Below, in pieces: positions 12,915 to 22,337 of a DNA stretch of 32,000 nucleotides. The position numbers and the translations under genes were made by a program. This DNA comes from an uncultured archaeon (lineage in GTDB: Archaea > Asgardarchaeota > Lokiarchaeia > Sigyniarchaeales > Promethearchaeaceae). The stretch's first letter is position 1. Each line of letters opens with the position of its first letter. A model generated the notes under the pieces. That model was given only the letters and a program-made list of their open reading frames with translations. It was not told where the DNA came from and ran no database searches. The stretch is taken from contig CAYRPF010000006.1 of assembly GCA_964426185.1 (NCBI GenBank), forward strand, positions 1 through 32,000. The letters are read 5' to 3'.

Positions 12915-13805
12915 TTAATTATCTTGCACGCCCAGTTGGGTAATTAACTGCTTTTTTTGCGTCTCGACATCCCGTGAAAGACCGAATGTGTCGGCAAACT
13001 GATCAGTTGTAAATAACTCAGAAGATCGACCCTTCTTTCGCGCCTCAACATAACCCCGGTCAATTAAAAATTTAACATGCTCATATGCTGTGGAACCACG
13101 CAACTTAACCAAAGTCGATTTCATCAAAGGTTGTTTTAAGGCAATAATAGTTAAGGTTTTCAGAATTGCATCGGGAATTAATCCTCCACTAGCGAATTTT
13201 TTCACTTTGGGCGTATATTCTGGCTTAATTTGCAAGCTGTATTTATCTTGAATATGGACAATTTCTAACGCAGTTGGGCGCATTAAATAATCCATAGCTA
13301 ATTCATCTAGTAATTTTTCCAATTCCCTTTTTCGGATATCGGTTTTAGTGCTTAATTCTTCAACAGAAACAGGTCTACCTGCAACAAAGAGTGCTCCTTC
13401 AACCACATTTTTCAAATGGATATAGGCTTCTTCTTCATCGCTCATGGGTGCAATATCTGCATTTTTTTTTTCAAGAGAATCTTTTTCAGAGCTAATTTCT
13501 TTGGTTTCTTGGCCAGATCGTTCATTCAATATCTCACGAATCAAAGTTTCACCCGTTTTTACATCCTTAACTGCTTCAGTGTCTTTATCCATGAATTCCG
13601 TGTTTTCATTCTCTGTTACAGATTTTGATTCCATCATTTCTGAATCTTTTTCGATTTCCAAATTATTTAATTCAGAAATTTCTTCATTCCCCACACTTTC
13701 TCCAAGTTCATCTTCCAATTCTTCCAAGTCGGAAAGAATTTCCTCGTCCAAATCAGAATCATCTTGCTTTTCCAATAGCTCCTTCTGTTCGGGTTTTTTT
13801 TCCAT
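12915..13805 (-). CDS. scpB: SMC-Scp complex subunit ScpB with long acidic N-terminal extension
   Basis: VEGALFVAGRPVS, LKTLTIIALKQP, LRGSTAYEHVKFL and FTTDQFADTFGL; located downstream of scpA and smc. Confidence 0.93.
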   Translation of the reverse strand: MEKKPEQKELLEKQDDSDLDEEILSDLEELEDELGESVGNEEISELNNLEIEKDSEMMESKSVTENENTEFMDKDTEAVKDVKTGETLIREILNERSGQETKEISSEKDSLEKKNADIAPMSDEEEAYIHLKNVVEGALFVAGRPVSVEELSTKTDIRKRELEKLLDELAMDYLMRPTALEIVHIQDKYSLQIKPEYTPKVKKFASGGLIPDAILKTLTIIALKQPLMKSTLVKLRGSTAYEHVKFLIDRGYVEARKKGRSSELFTTDQFADTFGLSRDVETQKKQLITQLGVQDN

Positions 13806-13838: not shown

Positions 13839-14987
13839 CTAAAATTCTAAGCTTGTTTGATCAATGAGTTTAATCATTAAAGGCGCTTCAGTATCCTCTT
13901 GGTGCAAAATAATTTTACTTAATGAAGCCAAAAATAACATTTCTTCGAATGTTTGAATATATTTGACTTTCTTCTCTAATATTTTAAGCGAATTATCTTG
14001 ATAAATCATATTTTTAAAATAATCCATTGAAACAGTGCGATTTGGTGGATTTTCCATTCGAATAATTTCAACTAATTGACGATGGCGGCGTTTTAAACGT
14101 TCCTCAATGGTTTCTTCACTTCCTGTAATATGCTTTAATATTTCTGCTGGTAATCGCCCCTTACCACGCTTTTTAACTTCTTTCTCGCGTTTTGCCATTT
14201 GCTGTTCTCGACGTATTCGAAGTTTTTCCCTTTTTTGCATTGTTTCAATAATTGCGCGGCGCATTGCTCCGAAGAGTTCTTCTGAAGTAGCAATTTTCCG
14301 GGCTTCTCGTAGTGGTTGAGCGATAGGTTTTGGAATTTGCCTACGAATCCGTTCCCGCATTTCAGCTTTCTGGATTTCTTCTTCTTGTTTAATAACTCCA
14401 GTAATTTTAGAATGGTATAATTGGGCTGAAGAGTAAATTGCCAAGCCGGAGATACGAAAATCGATTAATTCTTCTTCGACCATTTTCGAAACGAAATCTT
14501 CAATCAACGATGAAAGATCAAATTTAGTAAAATCCACTGTTTTCGCTAAGTCGGGGTCTAGGAGACTACGATAAGGTTCTTCCAGCCACCATTTCTTGAT
14601 TTGAGAGATTTTTTCTAATTCTTCCTCCATTACATCTTTCTCTTCTAAATCCTCACCAACAGAGATCACTTCTTTTATTTTTGGTTCTGCAGGAGTCCTT
14701 TTTTCTTTAGGTTTTTTAGTGGTTTTTTGTGATTTTCTCGTTTGCGATGTTGTTGTCTTTGATGGTTTAGCGATTTTTGCATTTGTTACCTCTAATGGTT
14801 TTTGTTTTGAGATTGTTGAAACTTTTGATTTCGTCGATTTTTTAGATTTGGTTAATTTTTTTTTAGATTTTGACACACTACTCTTTTTTTTGCTCGACTT
14901 TTTACGTGAGGTTCCTTTTCGAGCTGAGGATTTCTTTGAACTAGTCTTTTTATTTCTGGGTTTTTGAATTGTTTTTTCTGTTGTCAC
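13839..14987 (-). CDS. scpA: Kleisin ScpA with Lys/Ser-rich N-terminal extension
   Basis: N-kleisin segment FDLSSLIEDF...DFRISGLAIYSSAQLYHSK, middle SEELFGAMRRA and C-terminal winged helix TFEEMLFLASLSKIILHQ. GTG start after AGGAGG; lies between smc and scpB. Confidence 0.88.
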   Translation of the reverse strand: MTTEKTIQKPRNKKTSSKKSSARKGTSRKKSSKKKSSVSKSKKKLTKSKKSTKSKVSTISKQKPLEVTNAKIAKPSKTTTSQTRKSQKTTKKPKEKRTPAEPKIKEVISVGEDLEEKDVMEEELEKISQIKKWWLEEPYRSLLDPDLAKTVDFTKFDLSSLIEDFVSKMVEEELIDFRISGLAIYSSAQLYHSKITGVIKQEEEIQKAEMRERIRRQIPKPIAQPLREARKIATSEELFGAMRRAIIETMQKREKLRIRREQQMAKREKEVKKRGKGRLPAEILKHITGSEETIEERLKRRHRQLVEIIRMENPPNRTVSMDYFKNMIYQDNSLKILEKKVKYIQTFEEMLFLASLSKIILHQEDTEAPLMIKLIDQTSLEF

Positions 14988-15013: not shown

Positions 15014-18000
15014 TTAATTCTGATCGGGAGTATCTTTTACCAACTCCACATTCGTATCAAAATCCTCTCTTTCCTTTTCTTCTTCAAGATTAACTGTAAA
15101 AATATCGGTAATTCCGTCATTCATTGCAACCCCATAAATCCGATCTGCATTAGTGATATTTTCTTCTCGATGACTAATGACTAAAAATTGAGATTGTCTG
15201 GCATATTCTTTGATTACCATCGAAGTTCGATAAACATTTGGACCATCGAGAGCTGCATCTATTTCATCCATAATGTAAAATGGAGCGGGATAAAAGTTTT
15301 GGATTGCAAAAATAAAAGAAAGGGCAACCAATGTCTTTTCTCCGCCTGATAAAATGTCCAGCGATGAAATTTTCTTTCCTCTTGGTCTGGCTTCAATGGT
15401 TATTCCACCTTCAAAAGGATGGGCTGGATTTTCGAGAATCATTTTAGCGGAACCGCCTGGAGATAGTTTTTGAAACACCGAACTAAACACCCGATTAATT
15501 TCGTGATATGCCTTCATGAAATTCCGCGTTTTTTCCAACTCAATACGGTCAATAGAATCCAAAATAGCTTTACGCTCTCGTTGGAGAGTTTGCCGACGCA
15601 TATCAATTTCATCCCAGCGTTCTTTGACTTCATCGTATTCTTCAATGGATTTTAAGTTTACTGGCTCTAAGGCTTTCTTTTCAGTGTTAGCGGTTCCAAT
15701 TTTCTGATTTAATGTTTCTTCATTTAAATCATCTGTCACTGGTGGTAAGGTGCCGTAATCTTTTGATTTTTCAAAAAGTTCATCAATTTTTTCTTCTACT
15801 ACAATTTTACGAGTTTCTAATCCGTTGAATTTGGCATTATTTCGTGATAAATCCGCATTCAATTCACCTAGTTCATCTCGGAGCGATTTCTGTTTTTCCC
15901 AAGAAGCATTTTTTTGACCTTGAAGATCTGTCAATATTTCAATTTGTTTTAATCGCGATTCTTCAAGTTTTGTAATTTTATCGGTTATAGATTTAATTAA
16001 TTCTTGAAAATCGGCAATTTTATCTCCTAATTCACCCTCTTCGTCCTTAAGTTGTTCAATTTCGCCTTCCCGGGCCTTCATTTGAACTTGCTTATCCAAC
16101 TTCTTTTCCAAAGCCTTAATTTGATTGCTAATTTCTTTAGACTGTGCTCTTAATTCTTTTTCTTTTGATTCTAATGACTGTCGTGCAGTTTGATGTTCGG
16201 CAATGAGTTTATTTTTCTCTTCAATTTGACTTTCTAATTCATGAATTTGGTTCTCCAATTCTTCATTACTCTTAGTATTTTCAGCAATTTTCTCGGTAGA
16301 TTCGGTAATTTCTATTTCTAATGCTTCAATATCGGAAATTATTTTTTGAACATTTTGCAAATCCTTTATTCGACCGTTGACCTCACCCAGTTTATCCGAT
16401 TCTAAGTCAATTTGGGCTTGTAGATCGGTTCTCACATCATCAGCCTTAGCTCTTTTCTCCTTAACTTCGGAAATTTTGGCGAGAATTTCATCAATTTCTT
16501 TTTGTACTTTTTCACTTTGAGTAGATAGATCTTGAATATTTTGGTTTTTTGTCTCAATTTCTACTTGTAATTTCTGCTGTTCTTCAGTTGCATTATCAAT
16601 ATCGTCCAATAGTCGCTTAACATTACTTAAACTATTTAAATCGTCCACAATTTGTGCCAATTCTTCTGATTTCTCGTCAATCAGGCTCTGTAAGTCTTTT
16701 GAATCTTTCCAAAAATTTTCTGAAGATTGCTTCAATTCAGTTAACTTTTTGCTAATAGATTCAATTTCCTCTTTAATTTGACTCGCTTTGGTTGATTTTT
16801 CCTCAAATTCTTTTCTATTTGTTGAGATTTTAGATTCCAAATCATTAATTTTCTTTGTTAAGGCAGAGATTTGAGAGTTTGTTTGATTCAATTCTTGTTG
16901 TTTTTGCTCTAAATGGGCAGTAATTTTTGTAAATTGAACTGAAGCCTTAGAATATCCTTCTGCTTGAGCGGAGATAGCTGTATTGAGATCTTCCAAAGCA
17001 CGATAATGCTCAGAAGTATCTGCAACAGCCACAGCTTGAAGTGCTACCCTTATTGAATCGAATTTATCAGTAAAATCTTGAATAAAACCATCAAAATTCG
17101 CCGTGGATTCATTTAATGCTTCATCACTAGCTTCTTGAACCATTTCATTTAACTGAATTAAAGGTTGTTCTGCATTTTCAATCAACAATTTTAAAGTATT
17201 AACCGCAAAAGAGAGTTGTTCTTGAATTTCTCGGGGTTGATCAGGTGTCATTTCAGAAATTTCTTCAATCGACCGAAGCATATCGGTAACATCGAGCACA
17301 AATGCTTTAAAAACCTTGCTGGATTCATCAATGGCAACTTGGCTCACATTTTGAATGTCTGATTTAATATCGCCTGCAGATCGGTCAATATTCAGAATAA
17401 GATTAGTGAGATTATCCAGAACAGAGTTTAATTCTACCTGGGTTTCGTTATGTTCTGCTTCCTTTTTATCAATGGTTTCCTGCAGTTTTTCCCTTTCCTC
17501 TTTCATATGCTCTATTTTTTCACTGAAATTATCAAGTTGAGCTTGTAATTTAGTTTGTTCAGCGGATAGAGCGGCAATTTCTTTTTGTAGATTATCGTGA
17601 ATAATTTGAATATGTTGTTGCTGACGTTGGCTGGAATGAAGATCTGTTTCTGCTGTTTTAAGTTCTACCCCTATTCCAGTAAGTTTCTTTTCTAAGTCTC
17701 CTAATTCCCCTTCTAATGCACGCCTTTTTAATTCAAATGACTCTTGCTTGGTTTGACTGCGTTTTTGTTCCTCGTTGGCAGAGTTTAATTGAGATTTTAA
17801 ATCTTTGACTTGGTCACCAATTTTTTTTTCTTTAGATCTTAGGATTTTGATTTGATCTTCCACAGCTTGCCCTTTAGTTAATTTTTCGTATTCTTTTTGA
17901 AGAGTGTTCTTTTTTGATTCCAGATCTTCGATTCGTTTTTTGATTAAATTTATTTCTGCACCAGTTGAAGAGACTGCTGCTTGAATATCTGATTGAGATT

Positions 18001-19477
18001 TGGCAACCGTGTCTCTTTGTTTTTCTAATTTTAGAATTTCTTCATCTAATTGTTTTTGGAGGTTTTTTTGTTCAATAATAGATTGCTTAAGTTTGGTAAT
18101 TTGATCTTGAATAGCTTTTGCTTCGGTATTGGCTTGTTCCATGGCCTGTTCTATGCTTTCTGCATCTTTTTGTAGTTTTTGTAAATCTTTATCTAATTGA
18201 GATTTTCTTTTTTCGTTCTTTTTGATAGATTTCTCAAGAAGCTTAATTTCAGTAGTTAAAGCTTTACTGTCTTGTTTAATCTTAGAAATTTCTTTGTTTA
18301 TTTGAGCCTTTTCGGCGTTAATATCAGTGATGATTTGTTCTTCTTCTTTTTGTTTTACTTTATTTTCTTCAATAAGTCCTGCATTTTCATCAAGTGCTTG
18401 TTGTACTCCATCAATTTCTGTCTTAGTGCGTGCTATCAAATCATCAAAAGTTTGACCTTCTTCTAATTTCTCTTGAAGTTCTTCAAGTTTGATTATATTT
18501 TGTTGAAGCCGTTTTAAATTTTCTTCCGTGGCCTTGAGAGTTGCTTCTTTGGCAGAAAGTTCTGCTTTTTGAGCGGTAATTTCTTCATCTAATTTTGTTT
18601 TTTCAGTTTCTTGAACTTCAATATCTTCTTCTAATCCCTTTAAAAATAACGCTTCTGCTTCAATTTTATCTTTCTGTCGTTGAATTCTGTTTTTTAAGTC
18701 TTCAATTACCAATTGGGTAGATTCGATTTCTGCATTAATATCATCCTCTTCCAAGCGCATTTTATGAATTTTTAGTGCGATTAACTGAGCGTTGAATAAA
18801 TTTACTTTATTATCTAGTTCTTTCCAACGAAGAGCATCATTTTTTTCTTTTTCAACTTTTTTCAATTGAGTAGAGACTTCTTTAAATATCGCCTCAAATT
18901 GACCTAAATCTTTATCTGCTTTCTCTAGCTCTTTCAATGTCTTATCTTTCATTTCGTCATATTTACTTAATCCAATCAACATTTCAATAAATTCACGTCT
19001 TGCATTGGAACTCATATGAGTTAATTCTACGATTTTTCCTTGAAGAACAAATTGATTAGAGCCATCAGGATCAATATTTGCTTGAGCAAGAGCATTTAAA
19101 ATGGCCGTTCGGGTACTTGCCTTGCCTTGGATACGGTAACCACTAGTTCCACTGCGTTTTATCCATCGCGACACTTTGAATTCATCAGAATCGCTGGGAA
19201 AAACCCGATCTTTATTATCAAAAACAATTTCTACTTCTGCACGAGTTGCTGGTTTAACTTTTTTAGATCCTGCGAAGATTAAATCAGTTAATTTTGTGGC
19301 GCGCATGGTAGACTTTGCCAATCGACCGAGAGCAAAACATAAACCATCAATTACATTAGATTTTCCATTTCCATTCGGTCCCACAATGCATGTAAACCCT
19401 TTAGCAAGATTGACTGATACAGTGCGATTTCCGAAAGATTTGAACCCAGTCATCACGACACGTTTTATATAGGTCAT
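15014..19477 (-). CDS. smc: Chromosome segregation ATPase Smc, elongated, with non-canonical central domain
   Basis: GFKSF, Walker A GPNGNGKSN, Q-loop FVLQGKI, PVNLKSIEEY, signature LSGGEK, Walker B/D-loop YIMDEIDAALD and H-loop ISH; long coiled coils; operon with scpA and scpB. Confidence 0.95.
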   Translation of the reverse strand: MTYIKRVVMTGFKSFGNRTVSVNLAKGFTCIVGPNGNGKSNVIDGLCFALGRLAKSTMRATKLTDLIFAGSKKVKPATRAEVEIVFDNKDRVFPSDSDEFKVSRWIKRSGTSGYRIQGKASTRTAILNALAQANIDPDGSNQFVLQGKIVELTHMSSNARREFIEMLIGLSKYDEMKDKTLKELEKADKDLGQFEAIFKEVSTQLKKVEKEKNDALRWKELDNKVNLFNAQLIALKIHKMRLEEDDINAEIESTQLVIEDLKNRIQRQKDKIEAEALFLKGLEEDIEVQETEKTKLDEEITAQKAELSAKEATLKATEENLKRLQQNIIKLEELQEKLEEGQTFDDLIARTKTEIDGVQQALDENAGLIEENKVKQKEEEQIITDINAEKAQINKEISKIKQDSKALTTEIKLLEKSIKKNEKRKSQLDKDLQKLQKDAESIEQAMEQANTEAKAIQDQITKLKQSIIEQKNLQKQLDEEILKLEKQRDTVAKSQSDIQAAVSSTGAEINLIKKRIEDLESKKNTLQKEYEKLTKGQAVEDQIKILRSKEKKIGDQVKDLKSQLNSANEEQKRSQTKQESFELKRRALEGELGDLEKKLTGIGVELKTAETDLHSSQRQQQHIQIIHDNLQKEIAALSAEQTKLQAQLDNFSEKIEHMKEEREKLQETIDKKEAEHNETQVELNSVLDNLTNLILNIDRSAGDIKSDIQNVSQVAIDESSKVFKAFVLDVTDMLRSIEEISEMTPDQPREIQEQLSFAVNTLKLLIENAEQPLIQLNEMVQEASDEALNESTANFDGFIQDFTDKFDSIRVALQAVAVADTSEHYRALEDLNTAISAQAEGYSKASVQFTKITAHLEQKQQELNQTNSQISALTKKINDLESKISTNRKEFEEKSTKASQIKEEIESISKKLTELKQSSENFWKDSKDLQSLIDEKSEELAQIVDDLNSLSNVKRLLDDIDNATEEQQKLQVEIETKNQNIQDLSTQSEKVQKEIDEILAKISEVKEKRAKADDVRTDLQAQIDLESDKLGEVNGRIKDLQNVQKIISDIEALEIEITESTEKIAENTKSNEELENQIHELESQIEEKNKLIAEHQTARQSLESKEKELRAQSKEISNQIKALEKKLDKQVQMKAREGEIEQLKDEEGELGDKIADFQELIKSITDKITKLEESRLKQIEILTDLQGQKNASWEKQKSLRDELGELNADLSRNNAKFNGLETRKIVVEEKIDELFEKSKDYGTLPPVTDDLNEETLNQKIGTANTEKKALEPVNLKSIEEYDEVKERWDEIDMRRQTLQRERKAILDSIDRIELEKTRNFMKAYHEINRVFSSVFQKLSPGGSAKMILENPAHPFEGGITIEARPRGKKISSLDILSGGEKTLVALSFIFAIQNFYPAPFYIMDEIDAALDGPNVYRTSMVIKEYARQSQFLVISHREENITNADRIYGVAMNDGITDIFTVNLEEEKEREDFDTNVELVKDTPDQN

Positions 19478-19592: not shown

Positions 19593-22337
19593 ATGAGCAA
19601 TTCTTCCAAAATTCTTCTTCCTTATATACTCAAACCAGAAGGAAAGATAGAACCACTTGATATAGAAGATATTCCTTCAAAATTAATTTCTGTTAATATT
19701 TTGTATTTTTATCACTATGAAAAGAAAAGATTATATATTTGGATTGGTAAAAATGCAGGAAAGAAATTAAAGCAGACAATACCTACTGCAGAAGAAATAA
19801 TTTTAAAAAAAAATCCAGATATCACAATTATTCGCCATTTTACGGTAGATGAAGGAAGCGAAACACATGATTTTTGGCAAGATACCGCTCTTAATCCCGA
19901 AAATATTAGAAAAATTCAGCAAAAATGGTCTGAATTCCGATTAGATCAATATGCTTTGTTAGATAAACTTCGAATCAATATGACATCTGCTAAAAATACT
20001 GGTGATTTTGAAAACGCAATAAATTATATTGAACAAATACTTAAAGTTGCAGAAGAAATTTATGATTGGGATTTGATCGATGAATTCACACAATTACGTG
20101 ATCAAATCCTTCGAGTAAAAGATTTGAGATCTCGAAAAGATGAAATCAAGCGCGAAATTCCCCATAAAATTGCCAAGCTTGATAAATTAATGGCAGAAAA
20201 TGAGGTTATAAAAGCCCATGATTTAGCCGTTGAAATTCAAGAATATTACTCAATTTTATTTAATGAACCCATTCCCCGTAAATTTCAAAGATCATTAGAC
20301 TCAGAAAAAATGTTGTACGATGAATATATTAGAATAAAGAAAGATATTAATGATTTACAAGAGCGGTTTAATGAGTTCTTACCGGAAAGAAATTTAAGAA
20401 CTCTCTATCGCATTGGTAAAAAACTCGTCCAATTAAATGAAAAATTTGACGATATTACGATTGATCAGTCAATGATGGAACAAATTTCCTTAATTGAGGC
20501 ACAATACAAAGAATGGGAAAAATCAGAAAGAGAATATAGAAATAATATAACCACCTTAACATCAGCATACCAACGAGCAAAAAGTAACTATGAATTTGAT
20601 GAGGCTCAGCAACATTTGGAGAAAATAATAGAATTAATTCAAACTTCAGATCATAAAAGTGAATTAGAACAATGGGAAACTGAAATATCGAATTTGAAAG
20701 AATTAAAAAAACAATGGGAGCTGCAAAAAGAAGAAGCTAAAAAGAAAAAGTTAGAAAATCGTGATAAAATTAAGCAAATGCAAGCAGAAATTGAACAACA
20801 ATTACATAATAGAAATTTCCCAGAAACCTTTGCTTCCGTGGAAAAACTCTATCTTTTTGCCTCACAAACTCATGACGAAGAAATTGAAAAAGAAATTGCC
20901 AATTATCGGAAAGAAATTAATGAAAAAATAACAAACTTAAAGTTGTTAGATATATTATTGAAAAAAATTTCAGAATGGGAAGAATCTTTCCCTGAATTGA
21001 AAAAAACCAAGCAGTATGATACAATTTTAAGCGATCTCAATATATTCCTTTCTGATGAAGCCATAAATTATTCACTCGAACATAAAGCCAGATTATCAGA
21101 AATCAAATCGTCCATCGAAGAATTGAAGGAAAAATACTCGAAGAATGTAGCGCTCTATAATCGCTTATCTACAGAAATCAAAGAGAATGAAAATAAAGAG
21201 CAATGGATGGCTTTAACCCGTAATGCTAAACGCATTCAAGAAATCCTTCCTGAAATTGATAAGGAAAATGAGCACATAAAGTTTCAAGAAATAGAAAATT
21301 TAGCCAATCAAAAAATTAAGGAGAAAGAGAAGAAGAAAGAAGAAGAATTGGCTCAATTATTAAATAAAGCGAAAGAAATCGAAAATATCATCCAGAGTGA
21401 AAAAAAAATACTCCCATTGGTGGAGGATTTATCATTAGAAGACATCTTACCGAATTTATCTACCGATGTCAACGAAATGCTTACTCAAATTGAAAGCGTA
21501 TTAGATAAGCAGCGCGTTGAGGTTAAGGATGATATGGAAAGTTCAATGCTGTTAACCAGTGCCTCGGGCGAAACTATGGAGATCACTGCAAAAATACAAG
21601 TTTCAATGGAGTCTGCTTCACTTGATAAGGAAACTTTGGAGATCTCCCCGTTTACGAAATTTAAGGCAAGTTCTGTGTTGGAAAATCCATTCCACGACGC
21701 AATTTCTGAGGTGATTATTGAAGATATTATTCCCTATAACTTTGAAATTTCTGATATAAACGTGGAGGGGGGCGATAATTTCGAAAAACCCGAAGAACAA
21801 TTACACAAAGACGGCTTCGTCTTAAAATGGAAATTAAATAACATTCCCGCCCAAAACTCGGTTAAAATTAATTATGAATTACGTAAAAGAGTCTCACGAA
21901 CTATTCTAATTCCCTTGGAAACGCAATTAAAGGTAATAAAAACCCATACGAGTATCAAAGATTATTCTCCAGAAGGTTTGTACGATGTAACCATGTTTTT
22001 CAAAAACAAATTTGCAAAGTCAGTCATCGGCGTTGTTATTGAAGATATAATTCCAACCTTTTATCATTTCCAAATTAAACTTCCTAAGGATGCACTACCT
22101 GCTTCTCAAGTAGAACAACCAATTGGAGCACTTATTAAGTGGAATTATCACGAAATTCTTGAAAATAAGGAATTGAAACATCAATATCGTCTGTTAAATT
22201 TGGCTCAATTTGAAAATTTAAAGATTTTAGTGGATAAATTGACACGTGAAGCTTATAATACACTTGAAAGAGGCGATATCGATAAATCTTTGGCAACTTA
22301 TCAAAAAATTGTCAAAAAATTGCGAAAGTTTACCTAA
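19593..22337 (+). CDS. Gelsolin-like domain protein with helical-repeat rod and two C-terminal Ig-like beta-sandwich repeats
   Basis: N-terminal LYIWIGKNA...TVDEGSETHDFW (gelsolin/villin repeat signature); recurring helical units; two V(I/V)IEDIIP...(L/I)KW...Y repeats 107 aa apart. Confidence 0.75.
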   Translation: MSNSSKILLPYILKPEGKIEPLDIEDIPSKLISVNILYFYHYEKKRLYIWIGKNAGKKLKQTIPTAEEIILKKNPDITIIRHFTVDEGSETHDFWQDTALNPENIRKIQQKWSEFRLDQYALLDKLRINMTSAKNTGDFENAINYIEQILKVAEEIYDWDLIDEFTQLRDQILRVKDLRSRKDEIKREIPHKIAKLDKLMAENEVIKAHDLAVEIQEYYSILFNEPIPRKFQRSLDSEKMLYDEYIRIKKDINDLQERFNEFLPERNLRTLYRIGKKLVQLNEKFDDITIDQSMMEQISLIEAQYKEWEKSEREYRNNITTLTSAYQRAKSNYEFDEAQQHLEKIIELIQTSDHKSELEQWETEISNLKELKKQWELQKEEAKKKKLENRDKIKQMQAEIEQQLHNRNFPETFASVEKLYLFASQTHDEEIEKEIANYRKEINEKITNLKLLDILLKKISEWEESFPELKKTKQYDTILSDLNIFLSDEAINYSLEHKARLSEIKSSIEELKEKYSKNVALYNRLSTEIKENENKEQWMALTRNAKRIQEILPEIDKENEHIKFQEIENLANQKIKEKEKKKEEELAQLLNKAKEIENIIQSEKKILPLVEDLSLEDILPNLSTDVNEMLTQIESVLDKQRVEVKDDMESSMLLTSASGETMEITAKIQVSMESASLDKETLEISPFTKFKASSVLENPFHDAISEVIIEDIIPYNFEISDINVEGGDNFEKPEEQLHKDGFVLKWKLNNIPAQNSVKINYELRKRVSRTILIPLETQLKVIKTHTSIKDYSPEGLYDVTMFFKNKFAKSVIGVVIEDIIPTFYHFQIKLPKDALPASQVEQPIGALIKWNYHEILENKELKHQYRLLNLAQFENLKILVDKLTREAYNTLERGDIDKSLATYQKIVKKLRKFT

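Follow-up and report, generated by a model that had tools for sequence, protein, structure and literature searches.

A long-armed Smc with a predicted duplicated helical apex in place of the hinge, encoded beside a kleisin and ScpB in one order of Lokiarchaeia

A hinge is regarded as both universal and defining in Smc-ScpAB, condensin, cohesin, and Smc5/6, where it provides the dimerisation site and a DNA-binding surface and, in cohesin, a proposed DNA entry gate. Elsewhere in the SMC superfamily, a small apex at the end of the arm joins two molecules of Rad50/SbcC via a CxxC zinc hook, and the apical domains through which MukB and RecN dimerise are small or non-canonical; MukB retains a small globular hinge and works with MukE/F, and RecN is short-armed and works without a kleisin. 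"Hinge-less" SMC homologues of marine Actinobacteria have been described from sequence and predicted structure only, with an SMC-type head, a coiled coil, and neither hinge nor zinc hook; this group is bacterial, comes from ocean metagenomes, and was reported with neither partner subunits nor a genomic context (PMC12153180). Surveys of archaeal SMC proteins recognise two archaeal types and an extra Nse-type duplication (10.1101/2024.01.07.573240; PMC8665677). Here, we describe a Smc from a Lokiarchaeial genome that has a condensin-type head and, at its centre, a duplicated, apparently all-helical apex instead of the hinge; we found no published description of such a protein.

The closest known system is Smc-ScpAB (Pyrococcus structures 5xei and 4i99; B. 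subtilis), with which the locus shares the head motifs, the predicted antiparallel coiled-coil arms, and an operon containing a ScpA-type kleisin and ScpB. The window, which is the whole stretch of 32,000 nt that was analysed, encodes the Smc on its reverse strand as an open reading frame of 1487 aa (P0001; 15014..19477) with an SMC_N score of 154.6 bits. The N-terminal half of the ATPase head (aa 1 to ~170; 18968..19477, reverse strand) holds the Walker A motif GPNGNGKS at aa 33-40 and the Q-loop at aa 145, and the C-terminal half (aa ~1311-1487; 15017..15547, reverse strand) holds the signature motif LSGGEKTL at aa 1376, the Walker B motif and D-loop at aa 1400, and the H-loop at aa 1433. 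All the motifs are present, in agreement with an earlier note made from the sequence, which had described the head as intact, and the head is canonical for an ABC ATPase of the condensin type. It scores 418 bits against the Pyrococcus Smc head (5xei), which matches the hinged Smc of the same genome at 428 bits, whereas Rad50 heads reach ≤36 bits; the two Smc proteins of the genome are 36% identical over aa 1-436. TIGR02168 scores 583.0 bits, above its cutoff of 567.35, and the archaeal-type model TIGR02169 scores 635.7 bits, below its cutoff of 729.4, as expected with a domain missing. Identities as Rad50, ASRP, or arcadin were rejected on the head scores.

The smc gene is followed, after intergenic gaps of 26 and 33 nt, by a kleisin gene (P0002, 382 aa; 13839..14987, reverse strand) and a long-form scpB (P0003, 296 aa; 12915..13805, reverse strand). 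The latter was identified by PF04079 (118.5 bits, cutoff 27.4) and TIGR00281 (102.7 bits, cutoff 89.2). The middle gene, which the earlier note had taken for scpA, encodes a divergent product that by itself has no Pfam match, and it was recognised by profile and fold comparison. The profile of its family (22 members) matches the ScpA N-domain 6ivh_A with an E of 1.4e-4 over 110 residues and the ScpA/Scc1 C-terminal winged-helix domains with an E of 0.08-0.7, and PF02616 is matched by 7 of the 22 members (best E 2.2e-5). In the model, the C-terminus (pLDDT ~90) has the ScpA C-domain 4i99 as its top Foldseek match, with a TM of 0.80, a probability of 1.00, and an E of only 0.06, followed by C-domains of Scc1, RAD21, and ScpA. 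Judged by its profile and model, P0002 is a kleisin of the ScpA type, with a predicted N-terminal helical domain and C-terminal winged helix. Compared with Smc-ScpAB, the kleisin carries a basic or SAP/HeH-like N-terminal extension (in P0002, a Lys/Ser-rich, basic tail at aa 1-100 with a pI of 11.7), and ScpB carries an acidic one (aa 1-130, pI 4.1). The order smc-kleisin-scpB recurs in Lokiarchaeum ossiferum and two distant MAGs, and a kleisin homologue, present in 58 of the 61 genomes of the order, adjoins smc wherever both were located. From gene order only, we infer that the kleisin and ScpB bind the hingeless Smc; the conserved operon, which also encodes the kite subunit ScpB, bears out the proposal of a kleisin-associated SMC.

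The centre of the protein had been proposed to lack both an SMC hinge and a Rad50-type CxxC hook, and the searches agree on both points. The hinge and zinc-hook profiles (PF06470 and PF04423) gave no match in the whole protein (E≤1), in the isolated apex (E≤1), or in seven full-length relatives (E≤0.01), and the genome's own hinged Smc scored 106.7 bits in the same hinge test. When a profile of 30 apex homologues was compared with one of 17 archaeal hinges by hhalign, the probability was 10.6% and the match covered a coiled-coil flank only. The hingeless Smc has no CxxC; it contains just two cysteines, C30 and C47, neither of them central. It resembles Rad50/SbcC as a hinge-less ATPase of the SMC superfamily with a small apex on what is predicted to be a long hairpin arm, but differs from it in the missing CxxC, in the Smc-type head, and in its putative partners, a kleisin and a kite rather than Mre11.

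In place of the hinge, the chain midpoint carries an apex of ~130 aa, composed of two homologous 56-aa helical units and a short variable turn. The ascending coiled-coil strand (aa ~171-681; 17435..18967), modelled as helix over aa 601-681 and periodic at lag 195, leads into repeat 1 (aa 682-737; 17267..17434), a linker with the turn (aa 738-753; 17219..17266), repeat 2 (aa 754-809; 17051..17218), and the descending strand (aa ~810-1310; 15548..17050), periodic at lags 90 and 180, all on the reverse strand. The motif MTPDQP, which the earlier note had placed between the repeats, occupies aa 743-748 (17234-17251, reverse strand) at the midpoint of the 1487-aa chain. The two repeats lie exactly 72 aa apart, again as it had proposed, with 17 identities in 56 positions; their ungapped BLOSUM62 score is 69, a value that 20000 shuffles never reached, the next best 56-mer in the protein scored 16, and the autocorrelation at lag 72 has a z of 5.7. 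A profile-profile comparison of the repeats by hhalign gave a probability of 98.3% and an E of 1.4e-14 over 61 columns. The repeat was missed by plain BLASTP of the two halves and was found by ungapped scoring, Smith-Waterman alignment with shuffles, and hhalign. The linker differs in length and sequence among relatives, one of which is 8 residues shorter at the turn. We know of no such duplicated helical module in either MukB or RecN.

AlphaFold models the monomer of aa 600-900 as a single continuous antiparallel helical hairpin (helix 601-743, loop 744-748, helices 749-767 and 770-899) with a mean pLDDT of 85, which is moderate (60-80) in the apex and 93-97 in the flanking stem. The centre is therefore predicted as all-helical rather than as an alpha/beta hinge fold, in keeping with the idea of an internally duplicated helical apex. 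The arm would form a long antiparallel intramolecular coiled coil, modelled over aa 600-900 and read from sequence over the remainder, with ~570 aa per strand, which is ~1.5 times the usual length and compares with ~330-350 in Smc-ScpAB; the ascending coiled-coil strand has ~510 aa, compared with ~325 in the hinged paralogue. The Smc thus departs from that of Smc-ScpAB in lacking the hinge, in its duplicated apex with a predicted hairpin fold, and in its longer arms. The chain might instead run on without folding back, so that two chains would pair antiparallel over their full length as a ~170 nm rod with a composite head at each end and the loop as a kink. A globular turn-forming domain is absent, the turn is short and variable, and the duplication gives a pseudo-symmetric centre that would also suit antiparallel pairing between molecules. 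We consider this arrangement improbable, since AlphaFold folds aa 600-900 back with a confident stem, a kleisin bridging neck and cap needs both heads side by side, and the arms are intramolecular in all SMC-family proteins examined to date, according to Melby et al. (1998) as cited in PMC8665677.

A survey of Asgard genomes found the apex in 135 of 400, nearly all in one Lokiarchaeia order: in 13 of 13 genomes of family f1, the single genome of f2, 115 of 135 of f3, 2 of 4 of f4, and 3 elsewhere. The carriers include Ca. Harpocratesius repetitus FW102 and both cultured Lokiarchaeia, Promethearchaeum syntrophicum MK-D1 and Ca. Lokiarchaeum ossiferum Loki-B35, whose genomes are complete. The suspicion in the earlier note that the DNA is of Asgard origin was correct, the protein being Lokiarchaeial. 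The actinobacterial "hinge-less" SMCs are set apart by description, as the present proteins are Asgard, have cultured carriers, lie in a kleisin-kite operon, and have a duplicated apex and lengthened arms. The genome that contains the window is a draft of 155 contigs, and an assembly artefact or a decaying Smc with its hinge deleted was weighed as an explanation; we found no support for it, and its probability is close to nil. The same architecture and length (~1480-1515 aa in the apex-bearing frames) occur in more than 100 genomes, three of them single-contig or complete, the frames are open, the C-terminal head halves are 76-95% identical within the family (≤49% to other Smc proteins), the centre aligns almost gap-free down to 22% identity, and the hingeless Smc is longer than the hinged one, not shorter. 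The hingeless centre is thus not a misassembly, and sequence conservation for practical purposes refutes both artefact and decay.

The same genome encodes a hinged Smc (P0050, hinge at aa 535-650) with its own ScpB on contig C3 and an SMC5/6-like protein in an SMC5/6-like operon on contig C1, which makes the hingeless Smc a third paralogue. In a head-domain tree, the hingeless proteins group together as a single clade (SH-aLRT 100) on a long stem branch; this clade appears to nest within the archaeal Smc radiation and apart from the Loki hinged clade, with its deep placement tentative. Compared with Smc-ScpAB, the hingeless form coexists with a hinged Smc or, in many relatives, seems to replace it. 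A strong canonical hinge was found in only 7 of 42 sampled f3 genomes, and in five relatives that are 99-100% complete the only strong canonical Smc N-head match is the hingeless frame of 1487-1489 aa, this absence of hinged Smc being the outcome of two queries against genomes of which most are MAGs. Several near-complete genomes of the order yielded no condensin-type Smc other than the hingeless protein. We regard it as very probable that these genes represent a genuine member of the Smc-kleisin-kite group, conserved and specific to its lineage, which is the third SMC complex of this genome and is spread across one order of Lokiarchaeia.

Large hydrophobic residues make up 33-39% of the apex and 21-27% of the arms in 13 homologues, and the apex carries a net charge of -16 to -20 in the same set. 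Strongly acidic and richer in hydrophobic residues than the arms, the apex looks like a protein-protein surface and not a DNA-binding one. Its conservation exceeds that of the neighbouring arm only modestly, at a mean pairwise column identity of 0.45 against 0.25-0.33. A PDB sequence search with aa 600-900 returned noise only, and an ESM Atlas feature search with the apex returned no family and nothing above 0.87. Sub-threshold Pfam hits of the apex to DUF948, DUF1664, and WXG100 were coiled-coil noise and were rejected as composition effects; PF27241, a precomputed domain of close homologues, also occurs on a hinged Thermococcus Smc and so is not apex-specific. Foldseek searches with the apex model returned generic long hairpins only, including the MukB elbow, Smc arm fragments, and, as the top match (E 3.7e-4), the chemoreceptor cytoplasmic domain 2ch7, a long antiparallel hairpin with a conserved tip. 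Two chemoreceptor hairpins form a four-helix bundle. The likeness is one of shape only, with 13-14% identity and no sequence relation, and it serves as a model for tip pairing, not as evidence of it.

The two-repeat module, including the loop, is also carried by a non-SMC protein of ~1000 aa encoded on contig C26 of the same genome (P0049), to which aa 658-831 of the Smc align at aa 51-218 with an E of 6e-13. Proteins of this type were seen only in family f1, and some have two tandem matches to the module. A second copy in P0049 is visible by eye and is unaligned. The 914-aa neighbour of the operon (P0004) is unrelated to P0049 and is not a conserved neighbour.

Two apices packed into a four-helix bundle, the example of a dimerisation tip that the earlier note had offered, are our preferred reading, to which we give roughly even chances; a two-copy prediction of aa 600-900 scored 0.18 against a mark of 0.42 and is uninformative either way on dimerisation. 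There is a lesser chance, perhaps one to be called unlikely but substantial, that the apex does not dimerise, the Smc chains being joined at the heads by ATP engagement and kleisin and along zipped arms, while the conserved, acidic, and hydrophobic tip serves as a docking site for the module-bearing non-SMC family or for a basic chromatin protein. The acidic apex would fit such a site, as would the module common to the Smc, P0049, and the f1 relatives, and a shared module often underlies like-with-like binding. However, the P0049 family is confined to f1 whereas the hingeless Smc is order-wide, so a P0049-type partner would not be general, and topological entrapment of DNA, as by Smc-ScpAB, would not be possible for a complex open at its far end. 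Such entrapment is established for B. subtilis Smc. The complex would act as a chromosomal SMC-kleisin-kite ATPase, in which the kleisin bridges two Smc heads at neck and cap in the manner of Smc-ScpAB; in the preferred four-helix arrangement, its far end would be closed by the two hairpin tips packed together in place of the hinge. The apex would be a protein-protein surface, and the kleisin, with its basic or SAP/HeH-like N-terminus, would perhaps provide the DNA contact lost with the hinge.

Replacement of the hinge by a duplicated helical hairpin tip would imply that ring closure or arm pairing is achieved by undescribed means. With the hingeless complex, the Asgard SMC complexes, from which those of eukaryotes are thought to derive, would gain a third member. 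With a natural Smc that has a canonical head, its own putative kleisin and kite, and arms lengthened 1.5-fold but lacks a hinge, both the need for a hinge and the strictness of arm-length tuning become directly testable. With the gene present in the cultured MK-D1 and Loki-B35, and with subunits that are ordinary soluble proteins, the system is open to biochemistry, EM, and chromosome-conformation studies. A further-reaching reading, possible but doubtful, is that the complex is the sole condensin-type SMC machine in most of the order, that its all-helical apices meet in a new interface that closes or gates the DNA compartment, and that the module is a portable like-with-like unit that also docks the non-SMC protein onto the SMC tip. 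If this is true, close relatives of eukaryotes would have a chromosomal Smc-kleisin-kite motor that can do without the hinge.

The hingeless smc gene lies at 15014–19477 on the minus strand, on contig C6 of a draft Lokiarchaeia genome (3.26 Mb, 155 contigs, 92% complete; the window is C6 bases 1–32000), and its ORF encodes 1487 amino acids. We found a full set of ATPase motifs in the head, and the top match among solved structures, at 418 bits, is 5xei, which comprises the Pyrococcus Smc head and some of its coiled coil; no Rad50 head scores above 36 bits. The intact Smc head described in the earlier note is hence borne out. In Pfam, SMC_N is matched at 154.6 bits, and all other matches belong to a sub-threshold coiled-coil series. 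The protein passes the NCBIfam cutoff of TIGR02168 with a score of 583 and stays below that of TIGR02169 (635.7 against 729.4), a position between both Smc equivalogs that would be expected if a domain were missing.

The centre of the chain contains neither an SMC hinge nor a Rad50 zinc hook, as had been read from the sequence: a Pfam scan at E ≤ 1 found neither domain, and the profile of the apex region (aa 600–900, 30 sequences) aligns with an archaeal hinge profile (17 sequences) at an hhalign probability of 10.6%, over the coiled-coil flank only. Both cysteines of the protein are located in the N-head, and no CxxC exists in it or in eight relatives. The apex consists of two homologous segments, both quoted in the earlier note, namely repeat 1 (aa 682–737, at 17267–17434, minus strand) and repeat 2 (aa 754–809, at 17051–17218, minus strand), arranged around a turn with MTPDQP at aa 743–748; the chain midpoint is 743.5. 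Aligned without gaps, the repeats share 17 of 56 residues with a BLOSUM62 score of 69, which was reached by none of 20000 shuffles, and the second-best 56-mer across the protein scores 16. The Smith–Waterman score of the pair is 76 against 30.7 ± 5.7 in shuffles, and repeat-unit profiles built from 13 homologues match each other over 61 columns with an hhalign probability of 98.3% and an E value of 1.4e-14; BLASTP with composition correction left the pair undetected. By these comparisons a duplication in the Smc centre, far beyond chance, is confirmed. Among relatives, both repeats can be aligned nearly gap-free down to 22% identity, the turn between them varies in length and sequence, and the apex forms a local, not dramatic, conservation peak (0.45 versus 0.25–0.33 in the adjoining arm).

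The two-repeat module, complete with its loop, is also carried by a non-SMC protein of ~1000 aa encoded on contig C26 of the same genome (C26:16177–19254, equal to L030:2400–5177, minus strand), in which aa 51–218 match Smc aa 658–831 at E 6e-13. By eye, the first copy seems to be followed by another, and the rest of the protein comprises a beta-rich region and then a Lys-rich C-terminal tail; no Pfam family was found for it. Its relatives with the module occur only in f1, one of the families of the order, some of them with two tandem matches. Since Smc and this protein have the module in common, the apex is a discrete evolutionary module rather than a mere coiled-coil end.

Two genes of 382 and 296 codons' worth of residues follow smc on the same strand, with gaps of 26 and 33 nt. 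The 296-aa product is ScpB (PF04079 at 118.5 bits; TIGR00281 above cutoff), and it bears an acidic low-complexity N-terminal extension (13416–13805, minus strand; aa 1–130, pI 4.1) not present in the 189-aa ScpB encoded after the hinged Smc on contig C3. The 382-aa product is a divergent kleisin. Scanned alone it has no Pfam match; the profile of 22 orthologues matches the ScpA N-terminal domain 6ivh_A at E 1.4e-4, and the C-terminus of the family profile matches the winged-helix domains of ScpA and Scc1 at E 0.08–0.7. PF02616 is matched by seven of the 22 orthologues and Rad21_Rec8 by three. The closest structure to its AlphaFold model is 4i99, the ScpA C-domain on the Pyrococcus Smc head (TM 0.80), followed by the C-domains of Scc1, RAD21, and B. 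subtilis ScpA. The kleisin begins with a Lys/Ser-rich tail (14688–14987, minus strand; aa 1–100, pI 11.7), and at this place the orthologues of family f3 have SAP/HeH/Rho_N-like motifs; such a tail may be a DNA-binding add-on making up for the lost hinge. A CPYCG zinc-ribbon-like motif was seen in two kleisin orthologues in A2, the alignment with kleisin relatives. L. ossiferum and two distant MAGs share the smc–kleisin–scpB order, and 58 of the 61 genomes sampled from the order have a kleisin homologue; the downstream scpA/scpB genes of the earlier note stand, and its kleisin-associated architecture is supported. Divergently transcribed from smc is a 914-aa gene without family (19593–22337, plus strand), whose position next to smc is not shared by L. 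ossiferum or by the distant MAGs; its product has a long middle part, helical and coiled-coil-like, faint TPR matches, and a beta-rich C-terminal region.

Only 29 of 1.84 billion representative proteins match aa 560–940 at E ≤ 0.001. The full-length ones measure 1296–1497 aa, have no hinge, and come from sources labelled Promethearchaeota, Ca. Harpocratesius, Ca. Lokiarchaeum ossiferum, and MAGs labelled Heimdall- and Sigynarchaeota. As the survey of Asgard orthologues shows, the hingeless architecture is present in relatives: 135 of 400 genomes from the phylum carry the apex (aa 670–825), almost all of them belonging to the window's order (families f1, 13/13; f2, 1/1; f3, 115/135; f4, 2/4), in open frames of typically 1480–1515 aa. 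A C-head scan recovered copies with 76–95% identity in Ca. Harpocratesius repetitus FW102, in many MAGs, and in the complete genomes of Promethearchaeum syntrophicum MK-D1 and Ca. L. ossiferum Loki-B35, separated by a clean gap from all other Smc proteins (≤49%). Misassembly or decay of smc is ruled out by this conservation of the family across the order, complete genomes included, together with the gene order and the kleisin. C-heads close to the Asgard Smc are also encoded on L103 (DATKTW010000114.1, 79% identical, filed as a Nanopelagicaceae bacterium MAG) and L129 (DAITAL010000089.1, 96%, filed as a Bacillota bacterium MAG); both are probably Asgard contigs that were binned wrongly.

Two surveys of how SMC proteins evolved in archaea and in Asgards describe complexes that dimerise via the hinge, of canonical and SMC5/6-related types together with a further Asgard duplication linked to Nse-type kites, and neither mentions a hingeless Asgard Smc (10.1101/2024.01.07.573240; PMC8665677). 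'Hinge-less' SMC homologues are known from marine Actinobacteria metagenomes but were reported without partners or genomic context (PMC12153180). We found no publication on the hingeless Lokiarchaeia Smc among open-access papers and preprints.

The arms on either side of the apex are lengthened. Periodicity beyond heptads exists in the descending arm (15548–17050, minus strand) at lags of 90 and 180 aa (z 7.5 and 5.4) and in the ascending arm (17435–18967, minus strand) at lag 195 (z 7.1), a pattern that would fit lengthening by tandem duplication of ~90–97-aa modules. The AlphaFold2 model of aa 600–900, based on a 30-sequence alignment, is a single antiparallel helical hairpin: helix 601–743, loop 744–748, helix 749–767, a kink of two residues, and helix 770–899. 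Its mean pLDDT is 85, with 93–97 in the stem and 60–80 at the apex, and beside such a hairpin, Smc chains running through their centre without a fold-back are unlikely. Foldseek returned long hairpins only, namely the chemoreceptor cytoplasmic domain 2ch7, the MukB elbow, Smc arm fragments, and dynein stalks. In 13 homologues, large hydrophobic residues make up 33–39% of the apex versus 21–27% of the arms, and the apex has a net charge of −16 to −20 (Lys+Arg 7–11 versus Asp+Glu 24–29). Judged by composition, the hydrophobic face would be wider than a two-stranded coiled coil needs, as a higher-order bundle would require, and the acidic tip would argue against DNA binding at the apex. Because of this extra hydrophobicity, the conservation, and the pseudo-symmetry, we prefer a reading in which the hairpin tips of two chains form a four-helix bundle, as in the chemoreceptor hairpins, and consider its chances about even. 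That the tip is instead a docking site for another factor, with dimerisation confined to the heads, appears rather improbable. If the established Smc–ScpAB mechanism applies, ATP would drive engagement of the heads, the kleisin would link one Smc, by its neck, to the second, by its cap, and would carry ScpB.

A second smc, with a hinge, is present in the genome, a point the earlier note had raised. This Smc (1203 aa, hinge 106.7 bits) is followed directly by the 189-aa ScpB (the pair at C3:63042–67238), no scpA is adjacent, and the genome's single trace of PF02616 is a weak match on contig C16 (E 0.11). Contig C1 encodes an SMC5/6-like SMC (C1:13514–17047; 1177 aa, weak hinge of 29 bits) with Smc5 and Smc6 among its best named matches, and two ORFs of 256 and 193 aa come after it; an incomplete 902-aa frame of SMC_N type lies on contig C49. 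The hingeless Smc is the third paralogue. It equals the hinged Smc in its score to the Pyrococcus Smc head (418 and 428 bits), and the two are 36% identical in the N-terminal part (aa 1–436) and 33% in the C-terminal part (aa 1049–1465). A maximum-likelihood tree of 35 head-domain rows, obtained by quick search with the SMC5/6-like protein as root, unites the 12 hingeless proteins in a single clade on a long stem (SH-aLRT 100). This clade falls within the archaeal Smc radiation, where the deeper branches are unresolved, and outside the well-supported clade with the Loki hinged Smcs; the duplication into hinged and hingeless forms is therefore not recent.

A strong canonical hinge (E ~1e-29 or better) was found in only 20 of the 61 sampled genomes of the order, and in only 7 of 42 of family f3; the others show a weak SMC5/6-type hinge only, or none. 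The canonical hinged Smc was undetected in many near-complete genomes, such as G178, G199, G233, G265, and G160, which retain the hingeless Smc and the SMC5/6-like protein. Five f3 genomes, 99–100% complete, give one strong match each to the hinged-Smc N-head, and this match is the hingeless frame of 1487–1489 aa; by the queries used, the hingeless Smc is apparently their sole condensin-type Smc. The earlier note was right on the architecture of this Smc and its partners, its dimerisation tip is a candidate reading, and it is amended in that the protein is a third paralogue here, apparently the only Smc of condensin type in many relatives, with lengthened arms and a module shared with another protein. 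Its apparent standing as the only condensin-type Smc in five genomes is the strongest argument for taking the hingeless Smc to be a functional chromosomal SMC rather than a secondary paralogue.
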